From the NCBI GenBank assembly GCA_903813345.2, contig CAIIXF020000001.1, forward strand, positions 10,168,001-10,232,000: DNA of 64,000 nucleotides, written 5' to 3'. The DNA is from Owenia fusiformis. Taxonomy: Eukaryota. Positions 7,533-60,000 of this stretch are shown here, piece by piece. Under the pieces are notes generated by a model. The model saw nothing but the letters and a program-made list of their open reading frames with translations, did no database searches and was not told the DNA's origin. A program made the position numbers and the translations under genes. How positions within the stretch are numbered: the stretch's first letter is position 1; each line of letters begins with the position of its first letter.

Positions 7533-9149
7533 ATGAATTCAATCATGGCCTTGAACAACAACACATTGAGGGGATCATCCGACGTATTTCGAGCATTGGA
7601 GATCGATGTTGAGGACTACCCTGGACATCCAAGCTATCTCACTCTTCCCTTAACGCCCGTTCACGAGCCAGATTATCACATCAGAGCAGAGCCTCTCGCC
7701 CATAGTACCCCGGCGATGTCAGCGGATCTAGGGAGCGATGGCGAGCTAAGTCCGACGTTGAGCGAAATAGACTCAACATTCCTGTACAACACAATCAACG
7801 ATGGCCCGGAGCTGGATTTATGGAGCGACAATGCATGGGACGCACTTGGAATCGTGGAAGGGGACCTCTCGGTTGACATCGACTCTAACCCATCAACACT
7901 CTTAGATCTGTCATTGGCATCATCTGGTAAGTTGATTACACTTACACAGTTATCTTATAGACCCTGGACCCCCCCCCCTTATATTAGATGGGTGAGTCTT
8001 GAAGCATGACTAAAAAACTGCCGCTTGTGCAACTAGTTACAAATGTGCCGTGCAATATTTATCACAATCAAAACCATCTAGTATTACGTGTGACTTAAAA
8101 ATGAAATGATAATTTATTTTTTGGTTTATTGATATGTGATGCGAATATATTCCAATCAAATATTGCAGATTGAAAAAATTGATGATATAGTATTTCCAGA
8201 CTTGTAGTTAGTATTTCAAATCATGGTCTCACATATACCTATCACATTATCCAAATAAATAAAAAATTTATATCCTGAATAATTGCTGTTTGCGTTGTTA
8301 CAATTTGCAAATATAAATTGTGTTTTTTTTGTATTGCAGAATTCTACAGTAGCGAGTCTGACAGTTCAAGTAACCATAGCAACCCGGGTGAGTCCCCGGC
8401 TAACAACTCTACGAGTTTCGATAGTGACATTCCCTCAACGCCAACCAGTCGTCCATCAAATCAGCAACGTACACGAAGAGGGCAGTTGTCTTTGCGTCAG
8501 AAGTCACAGTTAGAGGATGCGTTCTTTAAATGTCCCAACCCAACAGAGAGCCAGCAGCGGAACCTTGGCAAAAAGATTGGAATCACAGTGGACAGTGTCC
8601 AGGTAAGATTTGCTTTTTGGATGGATCATCAGTCAAGTTAACGTTCCAACTTGTGTAATGGGTATCCACTTCTTTCTAGATAAAGAAGATCAAAACCCTT
8701 CCTCGGTCTGTAGTACTAAAATGACAAGGCTAGTTTTAGCGTGACTAACTTTATTAAAAACCGTGAATTATGTGAAAAAGTATTCATGAGCAATAAAAGA
8801 TGTCAGGCTTGTGGTTGATTAAAGTAGACCTGATTTTACATTGATTGATCCAATTTTTATTTGTATGCCTGTATACAAGTTATTTCTCAATCGCATATTT
8901 TAATGTGGAGATTTTACTATTTTATTAAAAGTGTTCTATTTTGTAAATTTTTAAATGTGTTTAATTTTGTACTTTCAGAAATGGTTCAGTAAACAACATG
9001 CTAGGTGTATCCGTGACAATCACCAGTATCTCTATGACAACTTGGACATCTGGATGGGTGTTACTAGCAACCGTACCTATCTTCTTCCCGTATTGTCTTC
9101 TTCTACGGATCTGGACTCAGAGGAACTCGTCTATAGTAACCATGATTGA
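7533..9149 (+). CDS. Divergent PRD-class-like homeobox protein, 3 exons, 275 aa
   Basis: Exons 7533-7926 (G|GTAAGT), 8340-8602 (CAG|GTAAGA) and 8979-9149 join in frame. Homeodomain 8465-9020: QRTRRGQLSLRQKSQLEDAFFKCPNPTESQQRNLGKKIGITVDSVQ|KWFSKQHARCIRDN, keeping R5, Q12, L16, E17, F20, P26, W48 and F49. The intron between codons 46 and 47 is the PRD-class position. An alternative ATG at 7545 has a good Kozak context (ATCATGG). Confidence 0.85.
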
Positions 9150-9194
9150 AGAGTGCTGCAATATCATCTCTATAAGTGCTGTAATATGATCCCT

Positions 9195-9630
9195 TCATAG
9201 TGATACTTCATCTGTACATAGTGCTACATCATCTGTACATAGTGCGACATCATCTGTACAGTGCTGAAACTGAACATAGTGCTCCATGAACTGTATTGCT
9301 GCAATACTAGCTGTACATAATACTACATCAACTGTACATAGTGCTCTGTCAACTGTATATAGTGCTACATCATCTGTACATAGTGCTCCATAAACTGTAT
9401 ATAGTGCTTCATCATCTGTACATAGTGCTCCATAAACTGTACATAGAACTGTAATATCATCTATACTTGGTGCTTCCTGAACTGTATATAATGCTGCAAC
9501 ATAGAACAAACATACACTGTATAAAGTGCTCCATCGACTATACATAGTGCTCCATCAACTGTACATAGTGCTACAACACCATCTGTACACAGTGCTCTCA
9601 GAACAATTCATGTGATTTGTAAATAGTGCT
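9195..9630 (+). repeat. 21-bp minisatellite (approx. CTGTACATAGTGCTMCATMAW) in the inferred homeobox 3' UTR
   Basis: TGTAHATA cores at 9213, 9234, 9312, 9333, 9354, 9375, 9396, 9417 and 9438 (runs with exact 21-nt spacing), then 9483, 9560 and 9618. Confidence 0.9.
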
Positions 9631-24400: not shown

Positions 24401-27400
24401 AGAAACTTGGAAACTGTCTGAAACAAAAATGTGAAGACGTTATCTCGCTAGTAGTTTTTACAGCTTAATTATATGTTCTTTTATGAGATAATTAAGGGGT
24501 AAATTAAATCTATAATTATAGTGTATGGAAGATCAAACTCCATAAGAAAGATTTTATTTATTGAGATGTCAACAGAAACATATTGTACATTGACAAGTGA
24601 AAAACTAAAAGAATCCTTTCCGCGTGGAGTGTGAGCCTTATATGGGAGGATAAACTAGGAGCCAACTTCTACATTAACAGTTTGTGATAGACTCAATAGA
24701 AAAGTCCAATTCACTTTCAATGGCCTTCCTAAACACCTAATAAATTAGCAAAGAAAATTTTATGTCTTAAGGTGTCAAACAATTTTCAATTTAGCGAGTG
24801 AAGAAACAGACAGAAATCAAACTAGCGATGAAAATAAGGGACGTTGTCCTATTTTATTTTGTTATGAAGAAGCTGTTTAGTGATGATTTTGGCCAAGAAA
24901 AGCATAAAATAGAAGTTGGAGGTCATTTAGAAACCAAATGTGGAATAATAAAAGTATGAAATAAAATATGGAAAATAAAATAATATCAATATGAAAAATT
25001 AAATGTTAGCAACAGCAAATCAACATTTTTAAAATTTCATCATACTGAGGAGACATTTGGGTGTTAAACGATAACAAAAGTAACTTCATTTTCCCCAACT
25101 GCCTCAATATTTAGATACCATCCCTAAGACATGTAATGTTCAAATTAAAACTGCTACTTAGTTGATCCTTGGAAGAATGAGGTTGAAAGTGCAGAATTCT
25201 GTTTGCTCAAAAAACAAAATTAGTGCTTTAATCAAGAGCTGTTTGGAACAAGAACAACACAATCAACTCTAGTTGCCACCCTAAACAACCAGTACAAAGG
25301 AGTAATTTTCTAATCTGGACGCTAAAGATCCTTCTTAGAGAGTTTCCTAGAGTCTCTTTATAACATTACAAACACACTTTGGCATGGTAAATAGACAAAT
25401 CACACCAAAGTTCAAGACTTAAATGTCTTTTTATTTTGTCTTAAAATTTTTCTCATGATTTCCGAATTGGTTTGAATTCTTGGTGAAGGGTCTGAGAAAA
25501 ACTTCACTAGTCCATGGATAAACTCATTAGTAAGGGACATTTTAACAAATTATAATGTTCTCTTTTTATTTCTGACCTCTCCAAAATGTCAATTCGCTAA
25601 AACACATTTAGACATTAAAAATACCATAATTCACTGGTTGTTCAAATTATAATTGCTTTTTATGTTTCTTTGTCACCAGCTTAAGTAAATATAACTTGTA
25701 TTGATTTGTCTAAAGCAAAACTGTGAAAGATGTTTTCTCAAAAATTAATGAAATAAAAGTTTTGTTAACAAAATTAATTCAAGTGTTATTGGCCATCATT
25801 TTCAATTGATAATGCATGAAAAAGGCATTGTAGATATAGTGTGACGGAGTGATTTTCATTTAGAATGCGGGACGCATTCTTTGGAGGAGAAGCAAATGTG
25901 ACGGAGTGATTTTCATGTTGTATTTTATAATTAATATCTTATACTTTTACTTTGTTTTTACTTTGTAAATTAATTAATGGAAACATGATACAAAAAGCAT
26001 TTAGATAAACAACAGGTCATGTAGTACACCTGGGATATCTCTGGTCAGTTTCTCACATTAAATATGCAATCATTACAATTGTTCAGAGCATCTTCAGACT
26101 TACAAATGTTTCTTTAATTTACATTTAATTTACATTTCTATATCTTGGATTCTAATTAGGATTTGAAGCAGTCTTCCTATTGTTAAACTTTTTACATAAC
26201 AGATTTGAAGTGATCATGTGATGTCTGGTTTTGAAGAATATACTATATGCCATGTGAGATTTGGGACACTTTCGGCCTAGACTTCAAAAAGACATAACTA
26301 GATTTAGTGGGTAGCTTAGAAGTGAAAACAAGTGAAATAAATAAAAGATAGAAATTAAAACATCACACTTTTGTGTACAATTAATATAAAGAAAGCCCGG
26401 TCATATTTTGGTGGAGCTGCCTGAGGTTTAACAACAATGGATTTATCAATATTGGACAAATTCCATGGAAAATCAGAAGAAAACGTTATTATTTGGTTAA
26501 ACACTATTGACACATTCGCAAATTTAAAAAACTGGAACCAACAAAGAAAATGTAGTTTAATCCCACTTTTAGTCAAAGGAGAAGCAGCAAAATACTTTGA
26601 ACAATTAGAGGAAAATACAAAGAACGACTGGGAGGAATTGACGGAAGCACTTAAAGAAAGGTTCCCACCCAAACAATCGGAAAGATGGGAGTTGTTGGAT
26701 AAATTGGATACTCTCAAACAAAATGATATGTCTGTGGATGAATTTCACAGCAAGCTCATGTATTATACCAGTAGACTAAAAAAGGATGCTGAGGATGTTA
26801 AAGAACTCTTTGTCCAAGGATTGAATACATCTACAAAGAACTTTGTAAGGCTCAAAGAACCTGAAAATTTAGAACAAGCTGTTAAGTTCGCAAGGATTCA
26901 TAGCAACATGCCCCAAGATTCAGCGCCAGAGATGTTAGCAGCCTCGATTAAAATTCTCACGGATAAAGTCGATAAGCTATCCGTTGCTGCAGTCACAGTC
27001 GATGCCATGGGTCAACGCTATGCCAACAATAACCAGTTTCCAGTGCAACAAAGTGCCCAAAGACAGCAGAACCAGTATCAACCGCAGAATCAGTACCAAC
27101 CGCAAAAGCAGTATCAACCGCAGAATCCGTTTCAACAACAGAACCAATTTCCTGGGAATCAACAGTTTACGCAACAACAGAAACGGTATCCCCAACATGA
27201 CCAACAATTTATGCAGCAAAATTCATCAAGCAGAAACCAGTGTGAGAGGTGCGGTAAGTCAAACCACCTTTCATTAAATTGTTATGCTAGGTTTAAGCAG
27301 TGCTTTCAGTGTGGTCGCGGGGGGCATTATTCGTATATGTGTCGAAACGTTGCTAAATGAGGACTCGCGCCTGTTCCTCATAGGGATGGGCACCTTGAAA

Positions 27401-30400
27401 CTAAAGTTGACAATCAAAAGTTTAAACAAGTGAAAAGTGATAGTGGCAAGGTGGCCATCCCTGCAGTTCAATCAGTCAAGGTTAATTTGCAAAGATCAGT
27501 TTCAAACATAATTATTCATACAAACATAGTTGACAATAATATCAAAGCCTTGGTAGATACTGGTGCAGAACAATCCTGTATGAGATTAGCACTCTATGAA
27601 AAATTGAACTTGCACAAGAAATGTCCTATCAGTCCAACTAATATTGAGTTATATGGGGCTGGGGGAGAAACTCACAAGCTAGAAGTACTGGGTGTGGCAA
27701 ATGTTCCTCTAAAATTTGAAGAATTTGAGTACGTTCAACCAATGCATATCCTCAAAAGTGCAAATCATGATGTAATTTTAGGTGAGGACTTCTTCTCACA
27801 AAGTCAAGCACTCATAGACTTCACACAAAAAGTTGTCATTTTACAAAGGGGAGATCCTATTAAACATAGTACATATACTACTAATAAACCAAGACTAACA
27901 GCATGTGTAAATAATGTAGCTATTGGTAGTGGAGTACAAACATCAGGTATCAATCTAGAGAAATCTAAATTACCAGAAGGGGAAAAGGCAGAATTGATAA
28001 CTTTCATTGATAAAAATAAAGATGTCTTTTCTCAAAACATGAATGAGCTAGGCTGTGCAAATAGTACATATGAGCATGTTATAAGAACAAAATCAGATAA
28101 GCCAGTCCAGCAAAGATTCTATAGGTATTCTCAAGAACAGAAAAATGAAATTGACAAACAATGTGACCAAATGTTAGAATATGGAATAATTGAACATTCT
28201 GTGTCAGAATATGCTAGCCCTGTTGTGTTAGTGAAAAAGAAGTCAAATGAGTACAGGTTAGCAATAGACTACAGAAGGCTCAATAAAAACACAGAAGCAA
28301 TTCATTACCCTCTTCCACAATTAAATGACATTATAGATTGCATAGCGCATTCAAAAGCAACAATATTTTCAGTTTTGGACATGCATAGTGGGTTTTGGCA
28401 ATTACCTCTTAGTGAAAGCTCAAAGCATAAAACAGCATTTGTAACCCACAAGGGCAAATTTCAGTTCAACAGAATGCCTTTTGGACTCAAAAATGCACCA
28501 ATGTCATTTCAGAGGGTCATGAATGATGTTTTGAAAGGTCTTACTTGGGACTTTGTGTTGGTTTACTGTGACGACATAATTGTTTTCAGTAAAGACATGA
28601 AAGAGCATTTAAACCATTTAGACCAGGTATTCACAAGACTTAGAAAAGCAAATTTGAAGCTTAAACCCTCAAAATGTAAACTAGCACTGGAAAAGGTTGT
28701 TTATTTGGGTTTTGTCTTCACCAAAGAAGGTATAACAGTAGACAATGAAAAGATCAAGACAATTCTATCATACCCACAACCTACAAATGTCACAGAGGTA
28801 AGGGCATATTTGGGACTTTGTAACTTTTACCGCAGATTTGTTAAGGGTTTTAGTAACATAGTAGCCCCACTAAACAATCTTATGCGAAAAAATGTCGAGT
28901 TTGTTTGGGATGAACAATGTGAAAATGCATTTCAAGAATCAAAAATTATGTTGACTACAGAACCAGTGTTAGTATATCCTGACTTACAAAAGCTGTTCAT
29001 TATATCATGTGACGCTTCAGGTACAGCTATTGGTTACATATTAGGTCAAATAGACGAACAAGGGAGAGAGAGAGCAGTTAGCTATGGAGGTAGGTCACTC
29101 TCAACAGGAGAGAGAAAGTGGTCCATTACTGAGAGAGAATGCCTTGCTTTAATTGAAGCAATCAATGAATACCACATATACATAGCAAATGCACATTTTA
29201 TAGTTTACACTGATCACATCTCATTAAAGTACCTGCAATCAATTAAAGATCATACAGGTAGGCTAGGTAGGTGGTCAATCAAACTTCAAGCATATGATTT
29301 CACCATTGAGTTCAGGTGTGGCAAATCAAACTCAAATGCAGATGCATTAAGCCGGAGACCATATGAAGTAAATGAATGTAAACAAATGTGTCAACAAACC
29401 ACAACAATACAAACAGAGGACTCAGGTATTACACAAGACAACTGCACTGATGAATGGGTAGCTTATAGTATTCCAAGCCCTACTACAATGCAAACAGGTA
29501 ATATAGGGGCAGAAGGTCAAAATGTTAAGTGTCCAATAAGTGAATCAAAACAACAAACAGGTATGTGTAGTGACCTAAGTGCCCTAAGTTCAATATGTGA
29601 AATTACTCAATCATCAAATGAGGTGTTTCAAAATAAACAAAGACAAGATCCTCAGCTGCAAATGTACATAAAGTATTTAGAGCAGGATGAGTTACCAGAC
29701 AAAGAGAACTTAGCAAGAAAGGTAATACTTGAAAGTCAGGATTTTCTTATCAAAGATGGTATTCTATATCATATGTATTATCCAAGGGGAAAAGGTCATA
29801 AATCAGACAGAGTTGTAATACAATTAGCAATACCACAACAATTGAGAGAGGATGTTCTACAGTGTTATCATGACTCCTTAATGGGAGGGCATCAAGGTCA
29901 AGATAGGACATACAACACAATCAGGTACAAATATTACTGGCCAAAAATGTATTCTGACATAGAGAAATATGTAAAATCGTGTGAAATTTGTCAACAATCA
30001 AAAAGGTATCATGGCCAGAGAGCACCCTTACAACCATTACCAACAGGAAGTCTATTCAGTCGTGTCCACATGGATATACTAGGACCTATACACAAGGTAA
30101 ATGGATTTCAGTACATTCTTTTGATTGTAGACTCATTTTCGAAGTGGCCAGAAGCGGTAGCCTTGAAATCTATAGAGGCAACAGAGGTAGCCAGGGTATT
30201 GTTTACAGAATTCATATGTAGATATGGTTCCATGAAGACTTTAATTACAGATAGAGGCCAGAATTTCATGTCAAAAGTTATTCAAGAATTGTGTAGAATG
30301 TTTGGTATTGAACACAGGGCAACCTCAAGTTATCACCCTGAGACCAATTCAAGCTGCGAAAGGATGAACAGTACAATCAATCAAGCATTTAGGTGTTTTG

Positions 30401-33400
30401 TTGATAAACAACAATCTAATTGGCCACAACTTCTACCAGGTATTTTAGCCTCTTATAGGTTTTCACCAGCAACTGAGTCTACTGGGTATTCCCCTTACTA
30501 TTTGTTGTATGGTAAGGAACCCCTTATGCCACTAGATACTATGGTACCAGTAAGTATGGGACAAAGTACAGTCACAGACAGACTACAAGATATACAGACT
30601 AACTTAGAGGTAGCAAGGGATATAGCTAAAGAGAATCAAGAAGCTGCAAAGATAAAGACTAAAACCCAACATGATAAAAAGGCGAAACTACCACAGTTCA
30701 AGGTAGGTGATAGAGTATGGTTACATGTGCCTAAAACTCCAACAGGTCTAACACCTAAACATTGTAGAAAATATCAGGGTCCATATTACATTGTAAGGGC
30801 TAATGCTAACATGACATACAAACTAATAAGGTGTAGTGATGATCGTTTATTGAGATCTTTGGTACATGCAAATAGATTGAAGCCTTATGTAGATCCAGAG
30901 ACAAGACCAACAAATATACCAAGAGTTCAACAGGGACAGGTATTACAGGATGACAATCATATTGATCAAGGTAGTAGTAGTATTAGTGATAGTAGTAGTG
31001 AAAGTGATCAGCATCCACCTCAGGTACAAGAAGTTGAGCGACTCTTGGCATGTGGTAAACACAATGGAAAAAAGTGTTATAAGGTGAAGTGGCGTAATGA
31101 GAAAAAGAGTACATGGGAGTATGAAGAAAATATTCCAAGAAATTTAATAAGGGAATACCATATCACCAAAACAAACACTGGTAAAGTAAGGAAAAGGAAA
31201 ACTAGATAAGAAAGCAAATCGATACATCATGCATGCATTTAAGTCCCATATTAGTTAGTTGTTTGAGTAAGTACATGTAGGCATTATATGATGTATGATA
31301 TGGTATTGTAAAGAAACTATAGCAGTTTATTGTTTGATATATTCTATGGTACAAGTATACAGCACAGGTGAGGTATAAGAGATGATGCTATTAAATTAAG
31401 GTAAGGGTATCAGGTGTAAATGTAAAGATAAAAGAGTATTAAGTGAGAAATAATAAAGTAAATGCAATGTAATAAAGCAAGTGAAATGATAATAAAGCAA
31501 GTGAAAAATAAAGAGAATATCTGGTTCCAATCAAGAGGATTAAAACACAGGTCTATTTAATGTACAAGTAGATCTGCGGATCCCAGGAAGATCAAACCTT
31601 AAAGAAAAGGTTAACCTAGGACAGCGTGCGACCTAGTCTGAGTTATTTAATGGCTAAAACCCCACATTACAAATGCAGTAATAAGACGTTGTTATCTGTG
31701 TATGTAATTGTGTAGCCAGTGTCTTAACGTCTAATTAAAGGGGCAGGTAGTGGCTCACGAATGCGGCAACCCCACCTTGCTGTCATTTATACAGTAAGGT
31801 AAGTCCAAGTTCTGACATAAGCACGTAGTACATATAGTGTGTAGAAGTGTTAGTTAGAATAACATATGTAGTTCAAGTGAAAGTAAAACAAATGTAGTCC
31901 AAGTGAAAGTGAAAGAAATGTAGTTCAAGTGAAATCCTAATGAAAAAGGATAAGACAGTGAGCCAAAATAAAAGTGTCAATATTGCATGGCCAACCCTGC
32001 TAATATTTTTAAATGTCTTAACCTGTAAACTAATAAAGTGTTAGGATTATTTACTAATATTTAGTATAGTGCCTTCTGGTAAATATAGTTACTGGGTGCA
32101 AACTACTTCCTGGGAGCTAGACACTAATTGGGACCAGTTAATTTGAGAATGACAACTTATAATAATCTTAATTGTTCAAAATATATAATTAATTAATCCT
32201 AAATTAAATATCTATGTACAACTTAAATTGAATTCATGGACTGCTACAGTCAGTTTACATTGTTTAAGAAGTTCAATTGCAAGGGATTATTTGCCTTACT
32301 TCTCTTATACTTCATCAATGTGAGTTTCTCATTATTATTTAAATGTGCCAGACAAAGGTCATATACCAAAGCATTATGGTAGAGATAAAGTTTGCACAAA
32401 CAATTATGATGTGCATCATTAACAGTGTTTATAAACAAAACTTAGTAGAAAGGTAGGATTTAGTGCAAGTTACTTTTAACTAGATATGGTTATAATAGGC
32501 CATAAAAGATTTTTTTTCTCCTGTACATATGATTGTAATTTTTAACTCAAGAAAATACAGGATTGGATTGTGCCAAGTTGAAGTTTTTACTGGCAACAGA
32601 ATCATCACGTGAAATTCTGTACTGGTGCATAATGAGTGATCAATTACCTTTGTTGGTTGTTAATTACAGTTTGGGTATTTTCACAAAGAAATTGTCCTAT
32701 TTATAATTGTTTTATTGAGTTTAATAATTATTATGGTAGTTTATGATGATTTTAGTTAGATAAACAGTATGTAAATTGTAAAGTAGAGTATACAAATAGG
32801 TGTTTAAAAATATATATATATATGCGACCACTCTGAACACTAAATTGCTTAAAATAAGAATTGCTAGCAGACAATTTGAAAGTTGGTAGACTTATGGCCT
32901 CAAGAATTTATGGAGGAGTTATTAATCTTCTAATATGATGAATTTCTTGATTAATGAAAATGATGCTGAATTATATTAACTCTGATAGTGCAACAATTAA
33001 TATTATAAACAATGTGACTTTACTTCAGGAAGGAAGGACAATATGACACTCCTCATCTCCAGGCAATGACATCAACATTGGGCGATGACATCAACGTTGG
33101 ACGTTGATATAACATTTTACGTATTTTATACTTTGATAGAATTTAACATTACAGGTTATATATTTTTAACTTGGACTGATTAAACGGAGTGATTTTCATT
33201 TAGAATGCGGGACGCATTCTTTGGAGGAGAAGCAAATGTGACGGAGTGATTTTCATGTTGTATTTTATAATTAATATCTTATACTTTTACTTTGTTTTTA
33301 CTTTGTAAATTAATTAATGGAAACATGATACAAAAAGCATTTAGATAAACAACAGGTCATGTAGTACACCTGGGATATCTCTGGTCAGTTTCTCACATTA

Positions 33401-36400
33401 AATATGCAATCATTACAATTGTTCAGAGCATCTTCAGACTTACAAATGTTTCTTTAATTTACATTTAATTTACATTTCTATATCTTGGATTCTAATTAGG
33501 ATTTGAAGCAGTCTTCCTATTGTTAAACTTTTTACATAACAGATTTGAAGTGATCATGTGATGTCTGGTTTTGAAGAATATACTATATGCCATGTGAGAT
33601 TTGGGACACTTTCGGCCTAGACTTCAAAAAGACATAACTAGATTTAGCAGTAGATTAGAAGTGAAAACAAGTGAAATAAATAAAAGATAGAAATTAAAAC
33701 ATCACACTATTGTGAACATTTAATATAAAGAAAGCCCGGTCATAATAGCTTCAAGTTATTGATACCTAACAAGGCAACTACAAAACCCTAAACAAATAAC
33801 TATTTCCAAAGTTTATATATTTATTGGAAGAAAATTGTTTGAAACTCAACTCCAATATCTGTTAAGCCAATGCATTGTCATTTAACTCTCCGGTTTCTTT
33901 ACATCCAAGTGATACATTATACATGTTAAAAGAGCAAAATATATTGGGGAATGCTTTTTGTATTGTTACCTATATAACTGAGAGAGTATGGAGTGATTGA
34001 TTCCAGTTTCAAAGCGGTAGTAGTCAATCAATGTTTTACATATTGAGTGAAGCGAGGAACGGGGACACGATTGGGGAAAATGTTTAATCCTGACTCTGGA
34101 GACAAATGATGACAGGGTGGATAAGAATTAGCATAGGTTTCCGATGAAACCATACGTTATACGCTAGTTAATGGGGCCCTCCATGACAGTTACACATAAT
34201 CCAATAACACCACTAATCAAACCTATCACTCAACTAAGAGATTGCAAAGAAAAATACACATATAATAGCCTCACTGGTGGATTAGCGTGTTGATAGGCAT
34301 ATTAATATCGCCAATCACACACAACTAGTTAAAAAGAAATCAGTCATCGAAAGTTAATCACTAGTTACGGATAAAGGCTGTTTTTATACAATAAGAGTGT
34401 ATTATGGTTTGACCCTGGGTTAGAGGCTAGGATCCCTCCCTCCCCCAGCTCTAACTGCTGCTACATCTAACGGGAAATTGCAGGTGTGCTCAACACATCA
34501 CCTCATTAAACACACATCCCTTGGCGCAACAAACCACTCAGAAAATTGCTAATTTCAAAGTTAAGTTTATAAATTGCCGTTTTGGTCATCCTTTTTGCTG
34601 CTTATCTGCATCTATTCAGCTTTATGAGGAAATTATTCACCTAGTTCAATGTAGTTATTTCCCCATGCAGCCTGTATAGAGTGGCTATCTAATGGTGGGG
34701 GATAAATCAACTCCAAGTGACGGTATATCGCACCTTCGATCAACCAGCCGGCAAACACCTAAACCCCATTAGAAAGTCAAAATATCTGGTGTTATTTCAC
34801 GCTTTAGAAAGTGAGAAAATGGATTGAGAAAAAGTTATTAGAGTTGAAAAGGTGCTGAATGGCGAAATGAATGCGTATGATTTGAGCGTATATTGGCGTG
34901 AAATAACTCAGTGGCTCGGAATAACATTGTGCTCCATAGATGTTCAGTTGAGACAACTAAAGTGTATTGAGACACTGGTGTAGCTGTCACACAAGTTCAT
35001 ATTTCAAATTTTCATCAAGTCATCAACCCATAATGACATTGTGCGTCACTGAATATTTTGCGTCAATGGCAATCTTGGCTATGAATGAGCTGAATTCCAA
35101 TTCTAAACATGATACAATGGTAAATTATTTTTTGTAAGTGATTCCACATGACAAATTGGTATAAATTACATTGAAAAAACATTTGTCCACTCATGTATAT
35201 GTATCCGTAACCACCACACACATTGAGAAACTAACACACCGTAGTAGGTTTATTAGACAGTGAGACTCTTCGCTATATATATGACTCCCAGCTGCATCAA
35301 ACTTTCACTTTTTTCATGACTCGACTCCATAAATCAAATCATTAAAATTAATCTTTCATTTTTCAAATCTTTTTCAATGAACTCAGTTCAAGCATTATTT
35401 TTCAAATCTGATGATGTTTTTTAAGAAAATTGCTAAATTACATGTTGTTTGAATAGATTGTTGACTGAGGGAAACGGTAAGAGAACTAGAGAGTATGACA
35501 TTTTGATTGAACTTAACACTGTAAGCTGCGAGCCATCTGGGCCTTGGGGAGCTCTCAGTGGTTAAGTGTCAATACATCGCTGCTTTATCACCCCACAGGG
35601 GTCCCCCGTCCACAGTGCCTCTATCTAGGCGGAAAATTCACTGACAATCAGTGAATGGAGTCCTCTCTCACAACATAGACTCTATTCAGTTTCACGCTAT
35701 GATCCATTATGTCTCCACCATGGCTAAGCAAGCCAAACCAGGCAGAGAAAATTTGACTTTTGATGTTAAAAATTGATCCCTAGGGCGCAAAAACATCTCA
35801 ACGGGAGTTTAAAAAAGTTACCTTGAGAGAAATTAGCTAATTAAACAGTCAACCATACTGAATAAATGTTATCCTAATTTTTCATCAATATTATTTGAAG
35901 ATGATAAGAGAGTTGACAATGGACCATATTGCCCTCACGGTGGGATGTAGTTGCTAAGAAACAGGGCCAATTTGTAGTTAGGAGTCAAGCCAGAATGATG
36001 CCATCTGTCTCTATGGGGTCTACAATTAGCCAATACTACCTAAGAGTTGTCAAGTGGCTCTCGGCTTCACAGAAAAATGGGAAGAAGCATGTTTTAAAAG
36101 TAGATCCTACAAATCAGCAAACACTTGAAATAAACCAAGCCGAGATGTTGCTACTTTTTATCCTGAAAAGGCATGAATATTACATGTGATGTAGTGCTAA
36201 ATAACATGTCTTAAATGAAAGAATTGCCACTTTGCTTCTGTTATTTGATACTGGTATGAATAAATAAAATGGAAATAAAGAATAATCTACAATGCTGGCT
36301 GATCGTTTGAATATTAAAAATTATAATTTTTGGAATAAATTATATTTTATAGTTGATAAATAAAAGTTAATGAAAATATACTATGAATTATTTACCGTAT

Positions 36401-51050: not shown

Positions 51051-54000
51051 TTAATGGCCATTAAGAACATTGTCCATAATGTCATTGAGATCGCTAGGTA
51101 ACTGCCCATGTCTGCGGACCTTTAAGGGAGTTGTTGGGGTTTGCTCTTCTGATATGTCCATATTAGCTGGATCTGAAGTATAAAAATTGTTTTACATAAA
51201 TAACAGTCTCATAGCACTATTAATAATTATATCGAAATAAACAGGTTCAGTTCAGAAAATCACAATTTATATCAAGGAGGTAGAAGGGATAGAATGTAAA
51301 TGTTGCAAGTGATATTTTGTTAAACAAGATGGCGACATCATGATGGCAAGTACTATATACTTTTTTAAAGTGCAATAAAAATCATGCCTTTGTTTCCCTA
51401 ACAATTCTATTTAATTTTATGAAATAAAGAATAAGACATCTGATCAAATATAGAACTCCTGGACTTTTTAGAAAATATGAATATGCACACATACCCATGG
51501 AACAATGAGCAAACAAATAGGAAATTGGACACCATATAAGGGTGCTTCTACCACAACCTTGTTGGATCATGGGTGTACTGAATATTTTAAACACAAACAT
51601 CTTCCAAATGTTTCAACAGATGGACAAAAGGATAAGGGAAGTTAACTGAATTCAACCAAGCACAGGGCCATAGTACTTTAGTGATGTAGCCCAGACTTCA
51701 TAATGATATGTCAACATGGAATCTTCCTCATGGTCATGGTCTATTCTTTCAAGATGATTTTTTCTGATTTTCTAGTCTTGAATTATTTCTCATGCAACAA
51801 GTACATACAAGAACACAAATGTGTACAAAATGTCCCCACCAAGTGGTGATCCCGTCAAATGGTTATCCTGAAAATGAGTACACAAGACTTTACCAACACA
51901 ATTTGAGGACGGAAAATCCAAAGTGGCCACCTTAAAATTTTACCCAGAATGCCAAAAATTAAGTCAGTTCTAGATTTTCATACTAAGAACCACCCCTGAA
52001 AATTTGAAATTGATCCGTCACACAGTTAACCAGAAAACATGTAAACAAGACTTTACAGACAAGATTTCAGGATGGAAAATCCAAAATGGCTGCCTTGACA
52101 TTTACCCAGAATGTAAAAAAACTAATCTGTTTGTAGATTTTCATACTAAGAATCATCCCTGAAAATATGAAATTGATCTACCAAATGGTTCACCTGAAAA
52201 CGGGTAGACAAGACTTTACAGACAAGATTTTAGGACAGAAAATCCAAAATGGCTGCCTTAACATTTACGCAGAATGCAAAAAAACTAATCAGATGTAGAT
52301 TTTCATACAAAGAATCATCCCTGAAAATTTGAAATTGATCAACCAAACGGTTCACCTGAAAACGCGCAGACAAGACTTCACAGACAAGATTTTAGGACCG
52401 AAAAATCCAAAATGGCCGACAATAAAAAAGTCCTTATGAGTTTTTGCTGATTTCTTTTTACAAAATTATCACATATAACTACTGTTAACAATAAAGTAGG
52501 CTTTTACAACAAAGTACATCTGAAATTATTTATTAAGCTACTAAATAGTTAAAGTATAAAAACTCAAAAACACCATCCAATATGATACAAAGTATTATTC
52601 AAAATGGCCGATAGGAAGTAGGTTCCGAGTTAAATTTTTTTCATCCACATCTATAGGCACTCATAAGTTATCCCTGAAAATTTGAAGGTGATATCTGTAG
52701 CGGTTTTGGAGAAAACTCCCGGACGTACGGACGGACAGACGGACGGACGGACAGACGGACGGACCAGTTGGACGCGCCTAGGCCGACAATATGGCCCCAC
52801 ACTATGTGGTGGGGACATAAAAAGTCAAACATACCAAACTTACTTTTTGCTTCTTGAGCTTCCTCTTTAAACCCTAGAGCAGCCGCAAACTCTTCTACAT
52901 CATACTTGCCATCATGGTTCAAATCAAACTCCTTCAGCGTGTCCTCATCAGGGGTATCAGGTCCCAGGAATCCTGGTAGATCCCTGTATTCAAGAAAGCC
53001 ATTTCCACGAATGTCCCACTTGGCAAAATATTGTTCAAGATCTAGAACATAAAATAAATAAATTCAAGATGGGCTGATTTGTGATGTCTGCTATGTGTCA
53101 CTGCTAAATAAGTTGATGTCGATTCTCAGGTGCAGATTGTACAATAAACAGTCATTCATCTACAGATAATTAATTAGAGAATGACTATGAGAGAATCTAA
53201 TAGAGTATTGTCACATTCGAATATACTGTATATTATCAATGCTGGTTCTTCTCTAAATGAGAAATGCTCTACTATCTATACATTCTGTACACATATGTTT
53301 TATTCAAGGATTTAAGCCTTGAACTCAGTGCATTGTGTGCTGAACCATTCCACGAAGGTGTTGTTTCCAAATCCAATTGGAATGAAGCAGCCACAATGCA
53401 TTAAGTCTTGGGCTTAAATTTTTTTCACACATTGCAAAATATTTTCTATAAAATCGCCTAAAAGATGCAAAATCACCCAAAGAACATATTTTCAATGAAA
53501 CAGGGGTCAAGTATTGGAAAACTCAATTTCAATCTCAATCACTAAGCAACTGTATGCGTTATTGATATTTCACACACTGTTTATTATGTGAATACTCTGT
53601 TTGGATTGGCTGGAATCAGACACACCTTGCCTAGCTATGTGTGAATTATAAATAATACACTTCGAGTACAGTACATTGTGTTCTGTAAAATACAGGATGA
53701 AGTTAAATAAAATAATACGATGTATTACTTCATTGTCAATCTCACTAGTCTGTACTCAGAACTACTTACCTTCCATGTCATTAATGTTAGGAATGGTAAT
53801 GGCAGCACTGCTAGAGACAGACTGGGTCGTTACTTCTATAAACAAGACAAATATATATTAATGGCATTACACAAGTGAATGATGAATTAAAAAAAAAGGT
53901 GTAATGTTATCTTGATATGAATTCTTGTTAATGTAAAGTTTATGGAATAGATATAAGATCAATTATTGTACTGGTAGCTGATTTAAAAAGCAAAGCATGT

Positions 54001-57000: not shown

Positions 57001-60000
57001 CAAAAATGTGTCCACTTACACAGGAGCATACCAATCAATGACAGTGGTTGTACTTACAGGGAGAAGAACAGAGGATATCAGTTTTTTAGGAGCATCTGCT
57101 AATTTTCTCTGCAGTTCCATCATTGTGGAAAAAGTAGGATCTATAAGTTCACTCTGGTGCTGACCTATATCAGCCATCTGGAACAGATAAACATGAGTCG
57201 ATTAGCTTATGTAGTCTTCAGATATACCTTAACATGTTGTCCATCAGGTATATAAAGGGTTGTCCCTATTCCCTTGGTATATTAACATAATATCATATGA
57301 TAAAATGAAAAAAATAAAACCCTACTTTTTCTCTCCATGTATGTCTTACCTCATTGTCAGGTTGGGTAATATTCATAAAGGCTGCAAATAGAGTATATCT
57401 TACCTCATTGTCAGATTGGGTAATGTTCATAAAGGCTGCAAACATAGTATATCTTACCTCATTGTCAGGTTGGGTAATGTTCATAAAGGCTGCAAACATA
57501 ATATATCTTACCTCATTGTCAGATTGGGTAATGTTCATAAAGGCTGCAAACATAGTATGTCTTACCTCATTGTCAGGTTGGGTAATGTTCATAAAGGCTG
57601 CAAACATAGTATGTCTTACCTCATTGTCAGGTTGGGTAATGTTCATAAAGGCTGCAAACATAATATATCTTACCTCATTGTCAGATTGGGTAATGTTCAT
57701 AAAGGCTGCAAACATAGTATGTCTTACCTCATTGTCAGGTTGGGTAATGTTCATAAAGGCTGCAAACATAGTATATCTTACCTCATTGTCAGGTTGGGTA
57801 ATGTTCATAAAGGCTGCAAACATAATATATCTTACCTCATTGTCAGATTGGGTAATGTTCATAAAGGCTGCAAACATAGTATGTCTTACCTCATTGTCAG
57901 GTTGGGTAATGTTCATAAAGGCTGCAAACATAGTATGTCTTACCTCATTGTCAGGTTGGGTAATGTTCATAAAGGCTGCAAACATAGTATATCTTACCTC
58001 ATTGTCAGGTTGGGTAATGTTCATAAAGGCTGCAAACATAGTATGTCTTACCTCATTGTCAGGTTGGGTAATGTTCATAAAGGCTGCAAACATAATATAT
58101 CTTACCTCATTGTCAGGTTGGGTAATGTTCATAAAGGCTGCAAACATAGTATATCTTACCTCATTGTCAGGTTGGGTAATGTTCATAAAGGCTGCAAACA
58201 TAATATATCTTACCTCATTGTCAGGTTGGGTAATGTTCATAAAGGCTGCAAACATAGTACCCATCATCTGCTGAAGGCCTGCTGTTGCATTAAATCTTGT
58301 TGGTTCATTATAACCTTGATTGGCTGCCTGCATCTGTAACAGTTATTAGTATCTTTCAAGTAGTATCTTTCAAGTCTTCATCAAAACCTAATATTTTGTT
58401 TTGGTATCCTTGAATGAGCCCATGACTTGTACATTGTTTGGTGAACATATTTACAACAAACAAAAATTGATGGAAGATTCAAATTTTTTATGGCATAATT
58501 GACTGGGTTTTATTTCTTTATATTCCTTGTAATATTTTAGGATTTCTCACTTGTAACAATACAATGCAATGATTTTCAAATAATATAAAATGAGATGTTT
58601 TTTTGTTTTCTTCAACATTTGACAATATATTCTAGAAATTTATTTTTCTTTATGTACCTTCGAGTAATCTGGTGAAACTAATTTCTTACATGCACATAAT
58701 GTTTTCAGTTACCTGGCTTAACTGTTTCTCAAAAGTGGTGACCATTTTTGTGATGTTGTCTATTTGTGCTGTTATGGTAGCCAGCGTGACATCAGAAAGG
58801 GGAACAGTGTTGCCATCTATCTTTGTAGGTGTTGTAAGGTTGTCTGAAGCAGTAGTCAGGTCAACATTTTGCACCTACAAGTACAGTATAATTGTTTCAG
58901 TAAGCAAATATACTTCAAATGGCCATGGAATAAATTTTTATAATGGCAACAAAGCTCCATTGCTATGACATCTCAACTTATTTTTGTGGCTGTATCTTTG
59001 TTAGTCACATGAGAAAGTGAAAATGAAATTTCTTCAGATTTTAAAAACTGACATGATGACAAAATATCCGTTAACTTTCATGACATACAGTACCTAAACA
59101 TAACTTATATCATATAACTTTATTCGGCAAAACTTTGACTTTGAGGAACTCAACATACAGCTTTTTGCACTGCCTCAGTGACTAATGTTTTGATGATCTG
59201 CTCCTGGCTCCCATTCAGCACCATTCGTATATGGGGTGACAACTCAATCAGGTTAAGTCTGGTGTCCACTGCAACTGTGCGATTTTCTACAACTTTCAGC
59301 TGGCTCTGCAACAATTAATGTAAATAGAGAGGTTACACATAAATTTACTATACTTTAATCTCATATTTTTACACTGAGAGATTTCCATATAATTCTGGAC
59401 TTAATTAAGTACATGATTTATTCATTAACACAAAGCATGATGGTTTTAATAATTTTCTTATTTTAACTAAATTAATGTCTAAATCATAAATGCTCAATGA
59501 GTAAACTTTTGGATATTACAAGTAAATGTTGACTCTTTTTTATAATGAAATGAAAGATGCAGTACGCAGGGGCTTAGCCTGCAATTATCAAGGGGAGGAG
59601 GTTAACATCACTGTGAGTGACGATAGCCCCAAAAAGGGGGGTGTACAGATGTTCACCCCCTGGCTATGCCCATGGTATGTGTATTGATCAAATGAAGATA
59701 ATTAAGCCCTAAAAGTCTGATTGCAAAACCTTTTAACAGTGGTAAATGTTATGCCTTGGTCACATTTGCTCTGATTTTCACTACGGCGCCCGGGCGAATG
59801 AGTATTTTGTTCAATATTGAATAAAATATTGAACAATACACTAGATCGGCCATGCGCCGGGAGCCGGCTGATGGATCGGAGCAAATGTGACCCAGGCATT
59901 AACAAGTATTTCAACCAATTAGTAAAATGAAAAGGTCACAGAACAATATAGCAAATTTCCTATGTATAGTCTTTGATGATGTTTTATCTCCAAATTACCC

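Follow-up and report, generated by a model that had tools for sequence, protein, structure and literature searches.

The window analyzed here comprises 64,000 nucleotides (nt) of the Owenia fusiformis genome (GenBank assembly GCA_903813345.2, contig CAIIXF020000001.1, positions 10,168,001 to 10,232,000 of the forward strand; coordinates below refer to this stretch) and contains a young, chromodomain-bearing LTR (long terminal repeat) retrotransposon of the Ty3/gypsy type at 25840–33744. The gag and pol genes of this element share one reading frame and are separated by an in-frame TGA. Judging from sequence conservation, Pol is very probably made by programmed readthrough of this stop codon as a Gag-Pol fusion, which most likely represents a known mechanism in a new host group, a clade of invertebrate gypsy elements.

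From the gag ATG at 26440 to the pol stop at 31209 the frame spans 1590 codons, and TGA 27358–27360, five codons past the final Cys residue in the CCHC zinc knuckles, is its sole interruption. A preliminary description of the window had reported this arrangement, together with an 8-nt spacer and a 10-bp stem with a CAU loop and three G-U pairs. All of this was confirmed, with the stem arms at 27369–27378 and 27382–27391 and a loop of 3 nt. Its statement that no in-frame ATG precedes the protease active site holds as well: the first in-frame methionine of pol is codon 74, behind the protease DTG at codons 66–68, and one relative (L342) also lacks an in-frame methionine before this site. A contig from a separate run spans the junction and shows 13 differences, none of them between 26746 and 27669.

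The genome (499.5 Mb, 819 contigs) was searched at the DNA level for further copies, which resulted in 22 matches representing 21 full copies and one remnant. All 21 copies are identical over 27339–27403, including the TGA. In 16 of the 21 both the gag and the pol frame are open, and the two LTRs are identical in 15 of the 20 measurable copies, from which it follows that the family moved very recently. The ratio pN/pS, computed with one degraded copy left out, is 0.16 for shared variants and 0.22 for singletons in pol, and 0.09 in gag. As judged from these low values, pol is under purifying selection, and Pol is made and used. The fixed TGA, the open frames and the selection on pol show that the stop is not a private nonsense mutation, a question that had been raised for the sister copies. 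The shortage of variation in the stems among the copies (no variable site in 56 nt, compared to 151 in 3849 nt of pol, about two being expected) is not significant.

Related elements were collected from metagenome and bacterial-bin contigs (160 loci) and from a viral collection (four loci), so that 164 loci were classed. Retrotransposon contigs in bacterial bins are presumably host DNA; the bins G001 and G002 hold 15 and 128 retrotransposon matches, a sign of heavy contamination with host DNA. Eight of the 164 loci have an in-frame stop between knuckle and protease, and two more were obtained from further contigs of one bin. The automatic junction labels are rough, and the in-frame stops were confirmed by eye. 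A tree of the reverse transcriptase (RT)-RNase H region was calculated with FastTree (94 sequences, 430 columns). The clade of the window element (support 0.896) holds ten DNA loci, two of which have no junction. An in-frame stop is present at all eight readable junctions, three of them with TGA (window, L262 and L342) and five with TAG (L263, L264, L266, L343 and L312), so the identity of the codon switches, yet it is always a stop. In the sister group of the clade, the readable junctions have pol in the −1 frame. Among the 120 related proteins listed, those with a species name include proteins of Mytilus edulis and of Haliotis rufescens.

Within the same genome, none of 60 other gypsy loci, hand-picked from the 130 non-sister matches among 150 scored (875 candidates), has an intact in-frame gag-stop-pol junction. 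Several of these loci are broken, and the readable junctions show a −1 overlap or a single frame. No additional in-frame stop was found in 15 further stretches of the genome or in 20 more stretches from the bins. A search of 201 genomes of the bin's family gave one weak match only, none of 755 candidates passed a search for Gag homologues, and a loose motif search in four bins remained at control level. Viral contigs gave no match when searched with the single protein, and the 80 and 73 loci found there with alignments, at no more than 40% identity, are uninformative. Outside the clade, an in-frame TGA after gag was also observed in L259:1239, L201:2049 and L225:2055, where the contexts (CAG-TCA plus a strong stem with z −4.3, CTAG, and CAA) correspond to other known contexts. 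Gag-pol readthrough thus seems to have arisen several times.

In five of the eight clade junctions (window, L264, L266, L343 and L263), the stop is followed by G and, after exactly 8 nt, by a stem opening with the pairs G-C, C-G and C-G. These five elements are 50–62% identical to each other in RT-RNase H, and the four relatives are 50–54% identical to the window element. The codons after the stop are GGA, GAT and three times GGG. Spacer position G1 is kept in all five and G5 in one, four of the eight spacer bases being purines in the window. The loops are conserved neither in length nor in sequence, the window loop having 3 nt, and visual inspection showed no sign of a pseudoknot, a type of structure outside the scope of the folding program. 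The basal pairs are predicted to form in the four relatives with probabilities of 0.97–1.0 in folds out to +170. In the four elements that can be aligned without bulge, 38 of 40 cells pair and three of ten pairs change on both sides, compared to 31–57% pairing in slid registers of the alignment. The covariation is 0.45 versus 0.12–0.22 in the slid registers. With L263 added, which the aligner places one column off, 42 of 50 cells pair.

The codons themselves carry further information. A G at a fourfold-degenerate position opens the stem in all five elements, across alanine, serine and valine codons (background 7–24%), and the next codon is the same proline codon in 5/5 (background 17–57%). For the conservation of the hairpin, this codon evidence is, at the level of the sequences, stronger than the shuffle controls on covariation, which are only suggestive. 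Taken alone, the window hairpin is not beyond chance (z −1.1 to −1.75 in four short windows), and 1.2% of 1234 pol codon positions have at least ten pairs beginning 9 nt after the codon; it is the recurrence of the same spacing and stem base in four other elements that places it beyond chance. The conservation of stop and stem in distant families, with compensatory changes, is what the preliminary description had proposed to look for, and it supports its view that Pol expression is controlled by readthrough in an animal gypsy lineage. Since the hairpin elements are scattered across the tree, whose internal branches are weakly supported, the sequences suggest that the signal is ancestral in the clade.

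A covariance model built from four junctions gave strong matches only to its three training relatives, and six weak ones, in 20 bins, and found neither L263 nor any junction among 17 loci. A search of the O. fusiformis genome with a tight pattern for TAG-type relatives gave no match. Nothing pointed to selenocysteine recoding: TAG is present at five of the eight clade junctions, and an Rfam scan limited to 27200–27700 gave no match near the stop, the one match lying far below the cut-off.

According to the proposed mechanism, most ribosomes would halt at the UGA on the genomic RNA and release Gag, and a few per cent, a figure transferred from murine leukemia virus (MuLV), would accept a near-cognate tRNA and proceed to translate protease, RT and integrase. 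The signal would consist of an A before the stop, a G after it, eight unpaired bases, and a stem with three G-C pairs placed at the mRNA entry of the ribosome; it would go back to the ancestor of a gypsy clade found in marine invertebrates.

Several observations weigh against readthrough or against the hairpin as its signal. The covariation is based on four sequences, its score was reached by 16 of 500 shuffles and the number of double changes by 34 of 500, and kinship inflates both. In L262, L342 and L312, the context of the stop is C-type, and a hairpin of this kind is missing. The four relatives with the hairpin all come from two bacterial bins and maybe from one host species; all four have an in-frame methionine before the protease. 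Among them, L264 has a second stop in gag, L266 has a stop before RT, L343 covers only 31 codons upstream, and the stem of L263 is bulged and was missed by the model built on the other four elements. A single Gag-Pol frame is found in three clade members known only as proteins and in five of 77 related proteins with the protease motif. In the window itself, the hairpin is predicted to be absent at equilibrium (−25.4 versus −35.0 kcal/mol for 27369–27470). Finally, the Candida albicans element Tca2 has the same layout, and in a yeast reporter its junction sequence by itself did not lead to readthrough (PMC2194720).

The equilibrium prediction results from a long-range stem of 16 bp (27382–27397 with 27447–27462), which is specific for the window family and had been overlooked in the preliminary description. 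It is the only inverted repeat of 16 bp (at most one mismatch, span up to 150 nt) in the 7.8-kb element. Among 120 windows across gag-pol, 27361–27470 has the lowest energy and the lowest z-score (−3.27). In folds of at least 110 nt, the probability of the hairpin is about 0 and that of the long-range stem about 0.97–1.0, and the bases 27392–27397 remain unpaired when the hairpin forms. The long-range duplex beats 200 of 200 shuffles and has no counterpart in the four relatives. It starts at +22, or at +11 with a 4-bp extension, and encloses a loop of 49 nt. Six codons within it are rare (frequencies 0.08–0.33), which fits selection as well as a recent inverted duplication. The long stem was also considered as the conserved signal in place of the hairpin and was rejected, the best distal duplexes of the four relatives not exceeding those of shuffled sequences.

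A conformational switch had been suggested before on the basis of a 7-bp pairing that includes the stop. This pairing exists as described and is predicted in naked window RNA (probability 0.91–0.92 in three folds that include the helix), and formation of the long-range stem is predicted to leave room for it. It has no equivalent in the relatives, a ribosome positioned on the stop would presumably melt it, and the actual competitor of the hairpin is 27447–27462, so that the suggested switch holds in part only. For the role of the long stem, three models were considered. The hairpin may plausibly still act transiently, with the long stem damping readthrough. It is also possible, if rather doubtful, that the long-stem form, which is able to start 11 nt after the stop, became the stimulator. 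The long stem might also serve another role, such as hiding splice acceptors or packaging, which appears unlikely. An RNA switch added by this family to the old readthrough signal is quite improbable. In such a switch, the distal strand would dock on the 6-nt toehold 27392–27397 and displace the stimulator hairpin, so that readthrough would be off at equilibrium, and it would be turned on when a ribosome that had just read through, or the chaperone activity of the Gag nucleocapsid, lets the hairpin refold first. If this were true, Pol would be made in bursts or under feedback by Gag, and the competitor strand would make up for the replacement of UAG by the leakier UGA.

Among the explanations that dispense with readthrough, expression of Pol from a spliced RNA is very unlikely. 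Splicing from the donor at 27253/27254 to an in-frame acceptor past the stop, for instance before 27467 or 27476, would delete the stop along with the two zinc knuckles. Beyond the stop, several AG sites lie in phase, whereas the most pyrimidine-rich acceptor (before 27384) does not. In L264 and L266, donors matching this pattern occur within the final 250 nt of gag, but four of six relatives checked have none, two having less than 100 nt upstream. Three raw RNA runs with 171, 185 and 133 reads from both strands were inspected, too few to test splicing or editing. Five reads of run X18 exit the element exactly at the donor, the sole internal read-based loose end in the three runs, and the first-mate-minus depth in run X19, 7.7 before this site, falls to 0.5 behind it. 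However, the runs showed no joint internal to the element, at a junction depth of only about one to two reads, and the loose-end letters match nothing in the stretch to which the reads were mapped and thus lead elsewhere. They were not found in the genome with up to one mismatch either, the agreement among the reads being only 0.64. The reads exiting at this donor possibly represent chimeric transcripts with host exons. Moreover, splicing explains neither the shared frame of gag and pol nor the fixed 8-nt spacing. It is even less probable that Pol is expressed separately from Gag, be it through reinitiation, a start at a non-AUG codon or a minor promoter located at the junction. As a rule, Pol reaches particles fused to Gag, which counts against such a route, and no site where many molecules begin was seen in the RNA reads, at low depth. 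An in-frame methionine precedes the protease in five of six relatives checked, but its position is not conserved (codons 10–56), and it is missing in the window and L342. Minor promoter activity is described for the Tca2 junction, where an artefact of the reporter had hinted at such a route (PMC2194720).

Recoding of the stop by A-to-I editing, guided by the surrounding double-stranded region, is highly improbable. Both stop types of the clade could be edited to a sense codon, which counts in its favor, and the window stop is predicted to be paired (0.93–0.98) in a helix stacked on the 16-bp stem. Yet a conserved helix over the stop is missing in the relatives, edited RNA would be copied into new insertions, of which none of the 21 copies shows a trace, and no variant at the stop appears in the RNA reads, at very low depth. 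There is next to no chance that the stop goes back to a nonsense mutation inherited in a family that depends on helper elements for its movement, with a fortuitous hairpin. Such an origin would agree with the insignificance of the hairpin taken alone and with a gag-frameshifting base shared by three copies, which points to trans-moved defective copies or a homopolymer error. Against it stand a pol frame that is open over 1282 codons at a pN/pS of 0.16–0.22, the absence of any RT with 53%–81% identity among the 150 scored matches in the genome, and a stop at the same place in seven distant relatives, a conservation that already refutes it. Programmed readthrough is kept as the preferred explanation.

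The junction was further compared with known readthrough systems. The likeness to Moloney murine leukemia virus (MoMLV) includes an in-frame stop placed between the zinc knuckle and the protease DTG, a G after the stop, the 8-nt spacer and a structure starting at G9 with three consecutive G-C pairs; in the window, the codon after the stop is GGA, as in MoMLV (PMC13517186; PMC3159437). The 8-nt spacing with three G-C pairs is reported as a feature common to MoMLV, Venezuelan equine encephalitis virus and Colorado tick fever virus, and UGA is functional in the MoMLV context (PMC13517186). A 2026 review assigns UAG-GGV and UAG-GAU to type III, for which UAG followed by GGV, GUA or GAU is listed (PMC13517186). 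One relative has UAG-GAU and three have UAG-GGG, all of which are listed, whereas the window has GGA but after UGA. By sequence, the start at G9 with three G-C pairs is present in all five hairpin elements; it is predicted to form in the four relatives and to be displaced in the window at equilibrium. Unlike the MoMLV pseudoknot, the clade hairpin is a simple stem-loop with a variable loop. The purine-rich spacer with G1 and G5 of MoMLV also differs from the situation here, where the window spacer is half purine and G5 is not kept. Furthermore, the window has UGA, and the host is a non-enveloped gypsy retrotransposon. The likeness to the MoMLV signal is probably convergent, and by analogy the clade signals may work like the MuLV signal without being members of type III.

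The fission-yeast elements Tj1, Tcry1 and Tosmo1-3 are likewise Ty3/gypsy elements with a chromodomain and an in-frame TGA between gag and pol (PMC4600332; bioRxiv 10.1101/2022.12.06.519325), and the transposition of Tj1 requires this stop (PMC4600332). Their context is GAA-TGA-CT, in contrast to AAA-TGA-GG plus a conserved stem in the window, and they use self-priming and, in Tj1, a 5-bp duplication (PMC4600332; bioRxiv 10.1101/2022.12.06.519325), whereas the window element has a putative tRNA-type primer site and a 4-bp duplication. In Tca2, too, a UGA separates gag from pol, and a spacer of 8 nt and a predicted structure are present, but this is a copia-type fungal element with a proposed pseudoknot (PMC2194720). 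Stem-loop stimulators at 8–12 nt after UGA are described for alphaviruses, tobraviruses and Drosophila kelch, and the long-range stem of the window with its 49-nt loop resembles their long-loop form; the viral cases have UGA-C (type II), whereas the long stem of the window starts at +22 or +11 and belongs to one family (PMC3159437).

The features of the element are compiled in Table 1. The order of the Pfam domains (Gag capsid, protease, RT, RNase H, integrase and chromodomain) is that of Ty3/gypsy elements. The LTRs end in TA instead of CA. When the genome was searched for exact matches to 15 nt of the primer site, only the 21 element copies were returned and no matching tRNA gene. The RT catalytic motif (28564–28575) is YCDD, with cysteine at the variable position. 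The 57-nt extension is present in three of 21 copies (window, L393 and L411), with the target-site duplication outside of it. The LTR start is repeated directly over 16 nt immediately upstream of the polypurine tract, which makes slippage during plus-strand synthesis a likely cause of the extension. All seven differences between the window LTRs are confined to 73 nt (26308–26380) near the LTR end, which suggests recombination between variants and not age. An extra base in the G run of the second zinc knuckle (position 27323), common to the copies L007, L016 and L017, shifts gag and reflects either a homopolymer error or trans-mobilization of a defective lineage. An older sister family has left two decayed remnants (L022:1506–1855 and L347:4393–4855), with 67% identity over part of the protease and 64–82% over the start of Gag, respectively, and neither shows the junction.

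Table 1. Features of the gypsy element and of its gag-pol junction in the window.
Feature	Position	Strand	Remarks
Target-site duplication	25836–25839 (left copy), 33745–33748 (right copy)	+	4 bp
Extension before 5′ LTR	25840–25896	+	57 nt; repeats the sequence preceding the 3′ LTR including the polypurine tract
5′ LTR	25897–26405	+	509 nt; 98.6% identity to 3′ LTR
Primer-binding-site-like sequence	26409–26426	+	Starts with TGG, 3 nt past the LTR
gag	26440–27360	+	306 aa: capsid, Gln-rich linker, two CCHC knuckles; Pfam PF03732, PF19259
CCHC knuckles of gag	27241–27282 and 27301–27342	+	
Consensus 5′ splice donor	27251–27259	+	Cut after 27253, inside first knuckle, 104 nt upstream of the TGA
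7-bp helix over the stop	27357–27363 with 27375–27381	+	Compatible with the long-range stem; not conserved in relatives
In-frame TGA ending gag	27358–27360	+	AAA before, GGA after; 21/21 copies
pol	27361–31209	+	1282 codons from stop to stop
Spacer	27361–27368	+	8 nt; G at position 1
Proximal stem-loop, candidate readthrough stimulator	27369–27391	+	10 bp; base G-C, C-G, C-G, U-G
Purine-rich strand	27382–27397	+	Serves the hairpin as 3′ arm and the long-range stem as 5′ arm
Distal strand	27447–27462	+	15/16 Watson-Crick complementary to 27382–27397; this family only
Protease DTG in pol	27556–27564	+	
RT in pol	28231–28716	+	
RNase H in pol	28981–29295	+	
Integrase in pol	29830–30339	+	
Chromodomain, C-terminal to integrase	31030–31161	+	PF00385, E 4.4e-6, 27 bits (cut-off 25.1)
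3′ non-coding region	31210–33222	+	About 2 kb; longest frame 63 codons; no env
Polypurine tract	33223–33236	+	
3′ LTR	33237–33744	+	508 nt

Elsewhere in the window, a tandem array of a 54-nt unit that is open in several frames on both strands (57231–58394) and a degenerate 21-nt tandem array (9156–9604) were observed, as well as exon-like frames matching a divergent homeodomain (8279–8641, forward strand) and an EF-hand pair (52671–53063, reverse strand).

Gammaretroviruses and some fungal retrotransposons are established cases of gag-pol readthrough, and animal gypsy elements are known mainly for a −1 frameshift or a single frame. A list by Gao et al. from 2003 reportedly holds a few elements in which a stop separates gag from pol, perhaps one of them from an insect. 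No report of the signal in animal gypsy elements was found in the literature; Repbase notes and the sequence supplements of PMC8556966 could name the clade or mention the stop. At keyword level, readthrough is not mentioned in the accessible text of the mollusc and annelid LTR surveys PMC6238403 and PMC8556966, nor in that of PMC6875170, PMC13524379 and PMC2678813. According to a 2003 survey cited in PMC5009743, 28 of 51 animal elements carry pol in the −1 frame.

Elements with a gag-stop-pol arrangement look broken to annotation pipelines that require one open frame. A single clade unites both stop types and contexts of the G type as well as the C type, and one of its families has a competitor strand built in. 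This clade appears to reach the MuLV geometry with a plain hairpin, and it thereby offers natural variants that bear on whether the spacing and three G-C pairs are enough, and whether the pseudoknot and the spacer bases matter.

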